The position numbers were made by a program. A stretch of 33,548 nucleotides of DNA from a virus (Duplodnaviria; Heunggongvirae; Uroviricota; Caudoviricetes): the IMG/VR virus record IMGVR_UViG_2778261064_000013; one strand, 5' to 3'. Of the stretch, positions 9,001-12,000 are shown one piece after another. Numbering within the stretch: the stretch's first letter is position 1; each line of letters starts with the position of its first letter.

Positions 9001-12000
9001 AAATCCACTGGTAAGCCGATCCCAGTTATTTTCTAAGTTACTGGTAAGATTCTGATACTGACGTGTATGTCCAGATGTGAGCAACGAGTCATTCTGAGAA
9101 GCCCGCAATAAAAACTCTCTATTGAGTTCAGGTATTTTGTCCTGATATTTGACTAACTGGTTAGCAAAGCCAAAGTTAACCCAACCCAGCCCCCTCCCGT
9201 TTAACATCCCTTGAGTTAATCCTGTTCCCTCATACTCCTTTGCAAGAGCAGCAACTCTTTCTAACAACACAGGGAGATTTTCTGTTGCCCCTTTTTTAGG
9301 ATTTATCCCTAACCCAATTAGCCCGTTGTAGGCAGGATGCTGAGTGTCATTCTGCGCGGCTGCCAGTGTATTGAGCAAATTACCAACACCGGAAAAATAA
9401 GGCGAATAAGTGCTTTCTGCCGCCTTTAACTCTCCTGGCGTTGCCTGCAATTCATCAGCATTTTTCTGTTTCTCTACAACATTACGAGCCATCATGCCAA
9501 AGCCAAACGGCCCGGCAACGCCCATAACCGCAAGTTTTGTCCCCCACGATACGGTGGTTTTAAACAGGTTGTTTAATCTCGAAGTGGTCGTCCGTAGCGT
9601 AGAATTGATCTGCTTGTAAGTTTTCAGCGTCTGTTTGGCGTTTTTACCCAGACTACTGAGATACTTATCAAACATCGTTTCGCCGCGACCTTTATAGTTG
9701 CTCACCAGCGAATCAGGTGTTTTTCCGCTACCGACAAAGCGCCCTTTTTCATCCCTTAAACGTCCATCGGTGGGAGCAGGTGAAGATGGTTTCCTGGGAG
9801 CCTGATTGGCTTCTCCGCCTGTGCTTGTCTGCCAGGAGCCACCTCCCGGACCTGTATTTGAAGGTATTTTAAGCGGCGTACCGGCAGGGCCAATCATCAG
9901 TCCGTTGCGATACTTTTCAAATATCGCCTCAAGCCGCCTGAGGTGTTCTTCATTAACATCCAGCGTCAGAACTGGCATCTGGTTACCAGCCATCACAATA
10001 CTCCTGCGGGATTTTTGAATTTGAGCAGCTCACGAAACTGAGCTGCTGTTTTTACATTCAGACCGGAATCTGCACAGATGTCTCTGAATCCGGCTCCGGC
10101 TGAGTAGTCGAGGATGTCGCTGATGACGTGTTCGCCGTCGCGCCAGAACTGGCGGCTGATTTCAATGTCGGCAATGAAGCGATCCATTCCGTAAGATTCA
10201 ATGACGAGCATTGAGTGCTCCATATTCCATTGACCACATCCATAGTCCCCTTCGCCTGCTCCGGTGAATTTATCGACGAGACGCATGTAAAAAAAACGAG
10301 TTCACCCGCAACATCATCCAGCTCAACGATTTCACGCTCCAGCGCCATATCAAGAGGGATTGTGTCGTAACCTTTGCCCTCCACCGGATAAACAAGGTTT
10401 GCCAGGCGAATTATTTCGTTCACCAGCGTATTACGAACTCCCTTATCATCGTCCCAGATACCGGAATCACGCGAGATCCGCTCCAGCATCAGAAAAGCAA
10501 CGCGCGGCCCGGCAACGACGCCAAGACCTTCTGAAAAAATGGCAGAAAAAGTTTTACTCAGAATGAAGAAATGCTCTTTAAACACCTCTTTGCTGATCGG
10601 CGTGGCATGAATCCAGCCATTACCCTTTTCTGTCCGGACAGGAATAATCAGGTTTAAATTTCGCGCAATTTTCATACCAGATCCCACATTTCAGAGTTGA
10701 TGTAATAGGTACCGGTAATGGTGATGACCACACCCGGCTCGCCCCCGGCGAAGGTCATATCCTGCACGTTGGTGATCGCCGTGTTATAGATATCGAAGTC
10801 ACCGAATACCGTGCTGTCGCTATACACTTTTGCGTCGCCGATCGTGGCGTTTTTTTCCCATTGAGCCTTGAATTGTTTTCCCAGCGCCTGGCTACGCAGC
10901 AGATGAACACGCGCCTGTAAAATCATGTATGGCTGCGGCGACTGCACGGCTCCCGTCATAGCGGGTAAAAACTCCGTGATATTGCCCTGAAAGGACAATT
11001 CGACGCCTTCTTTTGCCAGAAATGAGGCGGACACATTCAGTTCGGAATGAGAGGTGAATTTAACGCTGGCGCGAACCCGGTTAAGGGTGCCAACGGGGAT
11101 CATTGGATTAGGCACGGTTCAGTCCCTCACGAAAGCTGCATTGTCACATTGATGTTAAAAATGATTTCGACAAATCCGCGCATCGGCGTATAGGAGGCCG
11201 AAAGGCCCGCATAACGCCCGATACCGTAATCATTCGGATTAGTGTTGATATACTGGCGGAAAGGCACTGCATCGACGACAGGCTGACCGTTGACCAGGCC
11301 GTAAGATACGCCCGTATTGAACACCGCCTGTGCGACCTGCTGTAGACGGTCGATCCCGTCCTGGTTGTAGTAAAGCGGGTTAATTGGGTTATTGCTACCG
11401 TTGATCACCGTGTTGGCGAGCTGCATATCGACGTTAATCTGCACCCAGTCCACGGAATACCAGTACGTCATATCGTTACCGTCACTGGTAACGCCTTTCA
11501 CCAGAATCGTGTTGGAAATTCCCCCCTCAGCCCCCGTGTCGACGTAGTTAATATTCTGCTTTGTCATCGTGACCAGAATTGAATTTTTGCCCTTGTGGGC
11601 GTTTACCGCCTGTAGATAGCGAAATGCCATCGGCGGCACCTTGTTGATTTCTGAAGGTGATGCGGAAACATAGTTCCACATTACGGCTGCTGCCGCGTTT
11701 GTCGCCGGGTACGTATCATCCGCCGTTGCAATAACCGACTTAATACCGGCATAAGGCGAAACGTAATTCGTGTCGTCCGGCGTTTTCGTCAGCACGAAAA
11801 AATACTGCATCGCTTCGTTGGCGGTGTGGAGTTTTGCCAGACTGATAAACTCTGCGTCACCATCCCACGGCTGCGGCACCAGATACGCATAAAAACGCAG
11901 GAGCGGATCTTCCATATAAGCTTTCAGTGCAGCGATTTCCTTACTGACTCCGCCTTTCTGTACTCCCAGCTCCAGCAGGTAAATCCCCACTGAATTTCCC

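Follow-up and report, generated by a model that had tools for sequence, protein, structure and literature searches.

A very probable -1 programmed frameshift with a long two-frame overlap, conserved in an unannotated family of phage tail genes

The window, meaning the whole 33,548-nucleotide stretch of caudoviral DNA analysed here (IMG/VR virus record IMGVR_UViG_2778261064_000013), carries on its minus strand a run of tail genes in the order sheath, tube, a small gene and tape measure. The tail sheath gene (11127..12464, 445 aa) was recognized by its match to phrog_205 (tail sheath, E 1.9e-53), and the tail tube gene downstream of it (10672..11115, 147 aa) matches phrog_6566. Immediately downstream of the tube gene, with an ATG overlapping the tube stop codon (ATGA), lies an ORF of 205 codons plus stop (10675..10058; ATG at 10675, stop at 10060-10058), which putatively encodes the short form of a tail assembly chaperone and is referred to below as the zero-frame gene. 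The same 618-nt ORF is a 'hypothetical protein' in the PGAP annotation of E. coli genomes and gave a full-length match to phrog_11810. A segment in the -1 frame (9993..10289, minus strand, 98 aa), open from TAC at 10289-10287 to TGA at 9995-9993, matched phrog_14324, and the PHROGs entries for both frames are listed as 'unknown function'. Its stop codon overlaps the start (GTG 9996 / ATG 9993, in the sequence TGATG) of the tape measure gene (7915..9996, minus strand), the product of which has a C-terminal lytic transglycosylase domain (SLT, PF01464, E 8.8e-27). The stretch shared by the zero frame and the -1 frame spans 228 nt or 76 codons (10061..10288, minus strand) and was assigned as dual-coding from its codon-position diversity and the conservation of both tails.

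The zero-frame gene contains a run of eight T residues (T8; 10296..10289, minus strand) which is read, in frame with the ATG at 10675, as CTC (10300-10298), GTT (10297-10295), TTT (10294-10292), TTT (10291-10289) and ACA (10288-10286), as an earlier note on this sequence had described. The run includes a slippery heptamer, T_TTT_TTT (10295..10289), with two Phe codons in the P and A sites, and this is the sole X_XXY_YYZ heptamer between the last upstream stop in the -1 frame and the zero-frame stop, which lies 228 nt downstream of the slip site. Ahead of the slip site the -1 frame is interrupted by 12 stop codons, the last of them (10302..10304, minus strand) only two codons before the T-run, and after it 98 sense codons are open, beginning with the TAC and an ATG (10286-10284) and continuing to the TGA. 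Predicted products are 205 aa without and 227 aa with a shift, a difference of 22 aa that agrees with the approximately 20 aa estimated earlier, and the earlier statement that a -1 slip enters an overlapping ORF ending on the tape measure start is borne out by the stop-start overlap described above. The run as such is not exceptional, with 3 occurrences of TTTTTTTT in the window and 4.98 expected on the basis of shuffles; the bare T8 motif is not rarer than chance there, and the case for frameshifting stands because of the comparative evidence and not because of the T8 run alone. The two other T8 runs in the window lie at 22899-22906, outside any listed ORF of 90 aa or more, and at 31653-31660, in a Lys-Lys-Asn stretch of a 252-aa ORF; on a brief check neither is comparable to the run in the tail gene.

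Among close relatives, the T8 run and both frames are retained in E. coli prophages from 92 complete genomes, down to approximately 86% nucleotide identity. A first motif search matched 59 E. coli-type sequences, mostly IMG/VR loci, and T8 was present in 58 of them, the exception (L007) carrying T9; it was also present in five of six loci missed by this search, the sixth (L063) having a run of nine T residues and being itself frame-disrupted. The comparison across homologous prophages that the earlier note had suggested thus found the run and both frames to be conserved. It had further named run-length variation resulting in a single ORF as evidence against frameshifting, and such variation was found to no meaningful extent: the two-frame form occurs in more than 900 protein clusters and fused single-ORF versions are rare singletons (P0001, which is a T9 variant of 6 contigs, P0002-4, P0386 and P0133), with indels at differing positions. 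All fused single-ORF proteins at 30-40% identity have ...FFY... at their junction, precisely as in the predicted frameshift product.

The arrangement was also followed in approximately 20 sampled distant lineages at 28-60% protein identity and 35-66% GC, including metagenomes, an Acetobacteraceae MAG, Klebsiella phage Chronis and Pantoea phage PdC23. The order sheath, tube, gene, tape measure is kept in all of these lineages, among them eight distant loci with called genes as well as PdC23 and Chronis, and the proteins in the tape measure position are 579-713 aa in length, several of them matching SLT, Phage_lysozyme2 or Amidase_2. All of the lineages have N TTT TTT A at the same codon, as T8 or T7 in most and as T6 in two (L068 and L089). 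The full T_TTT_TTT heptamer is present in all but these two, in which the six T residues follow C or G and P-site re-pairing would be non-canonical. In every distant lineage the first codon of the -1 frame is a Tyr codon and a homologous -1 tail of 95-117 aa follows, ending at the tape measure start; in the six comparable loci of the eight the end of the tail lies within 10 nt of the called tape measure start. In relatives a stop generally closes the -1 frame 5-19 codons ahead of the slip site. Loci of 53-66% GC use TTT for both Phe codons, although TTT makes up only 7-30% of Phe codons in most of them (up to 44% in two), and the base before TTT TTT is T in all but two. Selection therefore appears to act on the nucleotides of the slip site and not merely on the Phe-Phe pair; UUUUUUU is otherwise avoided in E. 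coli genes (PMC4066793).

Across the family the zero frame runs on for another 54-76 codons after the slip. The N domain has a mean pairwise identity of 0.51, the zero-frame tail one of 0.45 and the -1 tail one of 0.38. Per-block conservation 21-50 codons past the slip site is comparable in the zero and -1 frames, and the control +1 frame contains 1-7 stops across the overlap. Nucleotide diversity at codon positions 1, 2 and 3 is 0.067, 0.042 and 0.304 in the N domain, a single-frame pattern that is lost in the overlap (0.075, 0.130 and 0.129); in the part coding in the -1 frame only, the values are 0.108, 0.184 and 0.061. An AF2 model of the zero-frame protein had a pLDDT of 84, with residues 1-170 above 90, including residues 130-170, and the -1 tail was modelled as a helical domain with a pLDDT of approximately 85. 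Since conservation and a predicted fold extend to the zero-frame tail as well, the overlap is truly dual-coding, and comparison of the sequences indicates that both frames are coding and under purifying selection across it. A zero-frame tail that is a non-coding by-product, open by chance, is ruled out by its conservation, the codon-position diversity and the AF2 fold. The classical G/GT layout is not followed here, because the unshifted frame runs on for these 54-76 codons as conserved coding sequence, and the small gain in size that the earlier note had remarked upon as atypical is both real and family-wide.

Taken with the anatomy and conservation of the site, these data indicate that the gene very probably contains a conserved programmed -1 frameshift of the G/GT type, its family being unannotated and its two-frame overlap atypically long. 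The T9 run and single fused ORF of the IMG/VR locus L007 and of the six-contig cluster P0001 would be in keeping with another explanation, in which the true gene is a single 227-codon ORF with T9 and the T8 form is a sequencing error in the homopolymer or a decaying pseudogene. Such an explanation is extremely improbable, however, and is essentially refuted by the presence of T8 in 58/59 motif-matched sequences as well as in finished genomes read on many platforms, by the excess of two-frame clusters over a handful of singletons whose indels differ in position and by the zero-frame tail, for the conservation and predicted folding of which a pseudogene cannot account. Two separate genes without recoding, with the 97-aa ORF (10286..9993) starting at its own ATG and the T8 run incidental, would fit the ATG directly after the run in the E. 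coli clade and the separate listing of this ORF by gene callers and by PHROGs (phrog_14324; P0127). The nearest Shine-Dalgarno-like sequence, GGGTGA, precedes that ATG, however, by more than 15 nt, which is too far for a normal ribosome-binding site, and distant relatives keep the -1 polypeptide without a Met at or just after the slip point, none being present there in their translated -1 tails. A reading as two genes, which we consider very unlikely, also leaves unexplained both the retention of the T-run against codon bias and the opening of the -1 frame exactly at the run.

Transcriptional slippage as the main mechanism deserves more weight, although it too is unlikely. A polymerase stuttering on A8/T8 and adding one U to a fraction of transcripts would, in place of a ribosomal slip or in addition to it, generate the same 227-aa fusion (V-F-F-Y...), a protein indistinguishable from that produced by a ribosomal slip, and the run is a pure homopolymer of eight in the window and in most relatives. 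Nor is a downstream RNA stimulator evident in the E. coli clade, where the predicted fold 3' of the slip site was not better than that of shuffles (z = +0.79), and RNAalifold on 20 lineages predicted no pairs family-wide. T homopolymers are avoided in E. coli genes partly on account of such slippage (PMC4066793). Against a polymerase-based mechanism, the whole arrangement is kept with T7 in several lineages and with T6 in L068 and L089, the run invariably keeps to the X_XXY_YYZ register, which is relevant to ribosomes and not to a polymerase, and the base after the run is always A. Also against it, well-documented bacterial slippage sites, such as those of Thermus dnaX, Shigella mxiE and IS elements, are runs of nine or more. 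Lineage-specific hairpins, found in some relatives only, lie 3-7 nt downstream of the run and likewise favour slippage by the ribosome.

Ribosomal -1 slippage on the T-run is thus the reading we prefer, and one start codon probably gives rise in this way to two proteins, a chaperone pair in a Pam3-like contractile-tail prophage. Most ribosomes would read straight through to produce the 205-aa protein, and a minority would slip by -1 on U_UUU_UUU (10295..10289) as two tRNA-Phe re-pair from UUU UUU to UUU UUU, then read TAC ATG CGT and onward to the TGA at 9995-9993 to produce the 227-aa protein. We infer the occurrence of this slip, its ribosomal nature and its efficiency, as well as a chaperone function of the products, from the sequence features described above. 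Residues 1-129, ending ...ELVFF, would be common to both products, followed by differing C-terminal modules read from the same 228 nt. The zero-frame tail is predicted to complete the N-terminal globular fold and to end in a disordered Ser/Thr-rich tail, and the -1 tail is predicted to consist of a flexible linker and a small helical domain. The expected junction tryptic peptide of the fusion would be EIVELDDVAGELVFFYMR, its zero-frame counterpart being EIVELDDVAGELVFFTCVSSINSPEQAK.

The label 'tail assembly chaperone' for the zero-frame gene is putative and follows from gene position and frameshift architecture. Pfam gave no matches, including none to Phage_TAC or GpE, for either frame or for eight fused relatives even at E<=10, a profile search against PDB sequences gave no match, comparison of the fold with known tail assembly chaperones yielded no significant match and sequence searches found no similarity to lambda gpG or gpT. 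The earlier interpretation as a G/GT-type chaperone is upheld, here and in distant relatives, as regards position, an in-frame slippery run and a conserved -1 ORF, and is qualified by the lack of homology to described chaperone families and by the atypically long overlap. In tailed phages the -1 frameshift of the chaperone gene is conserved (Levin et al. 1993 and Xu, Hendrix & Duda 2004, as reviewed in PMC5009743). As in lambda gpG/gpGT, the gene lies between the major tail or tube gene and the tape measure gene, two products would share a common N-terminus, the shift is by -1 on an X_XXY_YYZ heptamer, the arrangement persists although sequence similarity is low and the second ORF, lacking its own start in most lineages, ends at the tape measure start. 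Unlike in lambda, the slippery sequence is U_UUU_UUU and not G_GGA_AAG, and the two products would differ in length by just 22 aa. By analogy with gpG/gpGT, the chaperones may be set in a fixed ratio, with the shared part holding the tape measure protein and the -1 domain linking it to the tube protein; on the lambda model both would be required, and neither would occur in virions.

Annotated phage chaperone frameshifts have on average approximately 26 nt from slip site to stop (PMC10885494). In contrast, the zero frame here runs on for 177-228 nt and its tail is conserved and predicted to be folded, so that the products would represent alternative C-terminal modules and not short and extended forms. 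A second comparison is offered by the tail chaperone gene of phage P2, in which a -1 shift on T_TTT_TTG, reportedly described by Christie and colleagues in 2002 (ref. B141 of PMC5009743), gives E and E+E'. The two systems have in common a contractile tail, a -1 shift on a T-rich heptamer and a gene between tube and tape measure; unlike the window gene, P2 E is a small protein of 91 aa whose stop codon comes a few codons past the slip, without a long dual-coding overlap, and no homology of the window family to P2 E was detectable in the Pfam search. Influenza PA-X, as cited in PMC5009743, resembles the present case in that a frameshift opens an overlapping frame and both frames are under purifying selection, which in such viral overlaps is seen as suppressed synonymous-site variation. 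The organisms, proteins and functions are different, and here the two C-termini end within approximately 65 nt of each other and the overlap spans nearly the whole alternative domain.

In the model of the zero-frame protein the slip site falls midway along a predicted helix (residues 119-135), and from the zero-frame tail come the last two helices and a strand of the globular domain in addition to the disordered Ser/Thr tail. The -1 product would lack these elements of the fold and would instead have a linker and a different helical domain. We suggest tentatively, as a possibility that falls somewhat short of probable, that the frameshift exchanges modules inside a folded protein instead of extending a C-terminus, so defining a distinct and widespread class of chaperone pair with isoforms that differ in core structure. 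If so, the overlap would rank among the longer conserved dual-coding stretches known from structural genes of phages. If the frameshift is as proposed, a large family of 'hypothetical' proteins gains both a function and a recoding event, the tail chaperone frameshift can take another form, with two conserved C-terminal modules in two frames over 180-230 nt, and the locus would provide a natural test case for the co-evolution of two proteins in one DNA stretch. Annotation pipelines and frameshift predictors weight the proximity of slip site and stop codon (PMC10885494), and current predictors would miss this family because its stop is far from the slip site.

A chaperone pair of this kind would also bear on how the isoforms work in simple Pam3-like contractile tails. 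The locus resembles that of the 'minimal myophage' Pam3 (PMC9942802) in its series of sheath, tube, small gene or genes, tape measure, tube initiator, plug, hub and spike, and the Pam3 paper makes no mention of a chaperone frameshift. The hub matched phrog_196, and in relatives a protein of 88-90 aa encoded downstream of the tape measure gene gave a weak match to Pfam Pam3_gp18. The family comprises 626 cluster representatives at E<=1e-3 and ranges, in hundreds of clusters at 50% identity, from Enterobacteriaceae to Alphaproteobacteria, with members in E. coli, Shigella and Salmonella prophages and in isolated Klebsiella and Pantoea phages.

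Gene calling and family matches identified the minus strand of the window as a phage structural operon with the order large terminase, portal, protease, major capsid protein, sheath (12464..11127), tube (11115..10672), a 205-codon gene (ATG at 10675, stop at 10060-10058) and, at 9996..7915, the tape-measure protein of 693 aa with its C-terminal SLT domain, followed 3' by a baseplate hub (phrog_196) and small baseplate genes. The ATG of the 205-codon gene overlaps the tube stop (ATGA). Within this gene, 10300..10286 reads CTC GTT TTT TTT ACA, exactly as given in an earlier note proposing a programmed -1 frameshift here, and holds a T8 run (10296..10289) containing the canonical heptamer T_TTT_TTT (10295..10289). 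From the gene start to the run the -1 frame is interrupted by 12 stop codons, the last of them at 10304-10302, and is then open to a TGA at 9995-9993 that overlaps the tape-measure start (TGATG), as the same note described. The stretch bounded by the -1 stop at 10304-10302 and the stop of the zero frame holds no second X_XXY_YYZ heptamer. T8 as a bare motif is not beyond chance, with three observed in the window versus approximately five expected, and it is the comparative context that carries weight. The other two runs lie at 22899-22906 and 31653-31660 (both plus strand), the former in a stretch with no listed ORF of at least 90 aa and the latter being A8 on the minus strand, encoding Lys-Lys-Asn within a 252-aa ORF (31085..31843); no overlapping conserved frame was found at either.

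Of 5426 complete E. coli genomes, 92 carry the locus (identity 85-99%), and both the run and the two frames were intact in five aligned representatives, down to 86% identity. PGAP annotates a single ORF here, the zero-frame one of 618 nt, and calls it a 'hypothetical protein'. A first motif search matched 59 E. coli-type sequences, mostly IMG/VR loci, with T8 present in 58 and T9 in one (L007). Five of six loci missed by this search also have T8, with slightly altered sequence downstream; in the sixth (L063) the run is 9 T long and the frame is already disrupted upstream. In a collection of 5.8 billion proteins the 205-aa zero-frame protein is represented on more than 1000 contigs, and fused proteins of 226-231 aa are singletons (clusters P0001, with T9 on 6 contigs, P0002-P0004, P0386 and P0133) whose frame changes lie at differing positions. 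These have the look of sporadic mutants or of errors (homopolymer or indel), and thus do not amount to the variation in run length to a single ORF that the earlier note had named as counter-evidence. A database entry, PP818812.1 (L006, 'Actinobacillus phage vB_Apl-pPE4'), shares 93.5% nucleotide identity and its gene order with the E. coli-type prophage segment, a surprising match for a Pasteurellaceae host whose assignment may merit checking.

An exhaustive HMMER search returned 626 cluster representatives, most of 186-200 aa, which the fusion query matched over residues 1-130 only, up to the Phe-Phe pair. DNA was compared from approximately 20 lineages of 28-60% protein identity and 35-66% GC, including metagenomic contigs, an Acetobacteraceae MAG, IMG/VR contigs, Klebsiella phage vB_Kpn_Chronis and Pantoea phage PdC23. 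All retain the order sheath, tube, 205-codon-gene homologue and tape measure, the protein at the last position being 579-713 aa and in several cases matching SLT, lysozyme-like or amidase domains. At the homologous codon every one reads N TTT TTT A, in most as GTT/ATT TTT TTT A (T8) or ACT/GCT/TGT TTT TTT A (T7) and in two as a T6 run preceded by C or G, and in all the first -1 codon is Tyr (TAY). The -1 frame is usually closed 5-19 codons upstream of the run. The -1 tails span 95-117 codons, are mutually homologous with a core motif LYG..rF..DiDr.RqFWRDG...v.s.LdW...eGF......sAhEFRqR, and end no more than 10 nt from the called tape-measure start in the six loci, out of eight, that offer both coordinates. 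Rare fused database proteins (30-40% identity) all have the junction ...FFY... predicted for a frameshift product. Among loci of 53-66% GC, TTT accounts for 7-30% of Phe codons in most and up to 44% in two, although it occupies both slip-site Phe codons, with T as the preceding base in all but two. Retention of a minority codon at both positions shows that the nucleotides of the run are themselves under selection; UUUUUUU is notably under-represented in all frames of E. coli genes (PMC4066793). It is these distant relatives that are decisive.

The predicted shifted product has 227 aa (129 shared plus 98) versus 205 aa unshifted, a small gain rightly described earlier as atypical, and the zero frame runs on past the slip site for 76 codons in the window and 54-76 in relatives. 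Among 24 aligned zero-frame proteins, 31-84% identical to that of the window, Phe127-Phe128 are invariant and the tail carries the motif LWG.q.tSL..TEf..SLP.ST...sSGe....vPs, and this long continuation is real and family-wide. Mean pairwise identity across nine lineages was 0.51 in the N domain, falling to 0.45 in the zero-frame tail and 0.38 in the -1 tail, with 1-7 stops in the third frame over the same span; per 10-codon block, conservation was comparable in both frames 21-50 codons past the slip. Nucleotide diversity at zero-frame codon positions 1, 2 and 3 in 39 unique E. coli clade sequences was 0.067, 0.042 and 0.304 in the N domain, a classic single-frame pattern; 0.075, 0.130 and 0.129 in the overlap, where third positions of both frames are damped; and 0.108, 0.184 and 0.061 past the zero-frame stop, the pattern expected of the third position of the -1 frame. 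The AlphaFold2 model of the zero-frame protein (50-sequence alignment, pLDDT 84, above 90 for residues 1-170) has a helix spanning the slip site (119-135), tail helices 138-152 and 161-167 packed into one domain, and disordered residues 174-205. That of the fusion (12-sequence alignment, pLDDT 80, pTM 0.78) has the same N domain followed by a disordered linker (137-148) and a helical domain (152-220). Conservation of both tails, codon-position diversity and these models together indicate that the 228-nt overlap is truly dual-coding, and the two products carry different C-terminal modules, neither being an extension of the other.

With the anatomy in place, both frames coding and the run kept in register against codon bias, -1 ribosomal frameshifting on U_UUU_UUU is the best-supported reading, and the earlier interpretation as a tail-chaperone frameshift of the lambda G/GT type is supported. 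The main rival, transcriptional slippage on a T8 template, would give an identical protein and may act in T8 lineages; lineages with T7 or T6, and the strictly kept heptamer register, speak against it as the general mechanism. Translation is unlikely to start independently at ATG 10286, since no SD-like sequence lies close enough upstream and no Met was seen at the slip point or shortly after it in the translated -1 tails of the approximately 20 distant lineages. Under frameshifting, tandem tRNA-Phe slippage by -1 on U_UUU_UUU would presumably occur at an efficiency such that a minor part of the product is 227 aa long and the rest 205 aa. Lambda gpG/gpGT (PMC5009743) suggests by analogy that these two proteins would serve the tape-measure protein as a pair of tail assembly chaperones, each C-terminal module possibly having its own binding partner. 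For the E. coli clade no stimulatory RNA was evident at the slip site (z = +0.79), and none common to the whole family was found. Seven lineages (L066, L068, L071, L075, L076, L079 and L089) have 9-12-bp hairpins starting 3-7 nt past the run (z = -1.8 to -4.1 versus shuffles), differing in sequence by lineage, which may be lineage-specific frameshift stimulators.

In gene position and in recoding, the arrangement has what defines the G/GT class, but it departs from that class in two respects. One is sequence: neither frame, nor any of 8 fused relatives, gave a Pfam match to a described chaperone family, even at E<=10. The other is slip-site placement, which in that class is near the upstream ORF stop and here is 228 nt from it. 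Annotated SEA-PHAGES frameshifts (n = 2476, 2397 in tail assembly chaperones) have a mean slip-to-stop distance of 26 nt, and PRFect recovered 2 of 43 cases above 51 nt (PMC10885494). In INPHARED the gene is present in seven phage records, each of which labels it 'hypothetical protein' and has no joined CDS. The surrounding tail module resembles that of the minimal myophage Pam3, whose description makes no mention of a chaperone frameshift (PMC9942802). A conserved tail-chaperone -1 frameshift is of a known kind and is itself expected biology; what distinguishes this case is the long dual-coding overlap leading to two alternative conserved C-termini in a widespread, unannotated family, and the predicted two-frame module swap is noteworthy together with its invisibility to current predictors.

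The SLT lytic transglycosylase domain of the tape measure (7915-9996, minus strand) is PF01464 at residues 520-620, and several relatives have Phage_lysozyme2 or Amidase_2 matches at the tape-measure position instead, suggesting a swappable cell-wall-degrading module. Genes of 222, 88, 335 and 237 aa 3' of the tape measure (5260-7911, minus strand) fit a Pam3-like minimal baseplate; the 335-aa protein matches hub family phrog_196, no PHROG match was found for the 237-aa ORF, and an 88-90-aa protein of relatives (L065, L066, L071) has a weak Pfam match to Pam3_gp18 (plug). In the head-tail connector region (13395-14272, minus strand) a 217-aa ORF with a GTG start (13395..14048) and a 146-aa ORF (13832..14272) share approximately 215 nt in different frames, which could reflect a mis-called start or another overlap.
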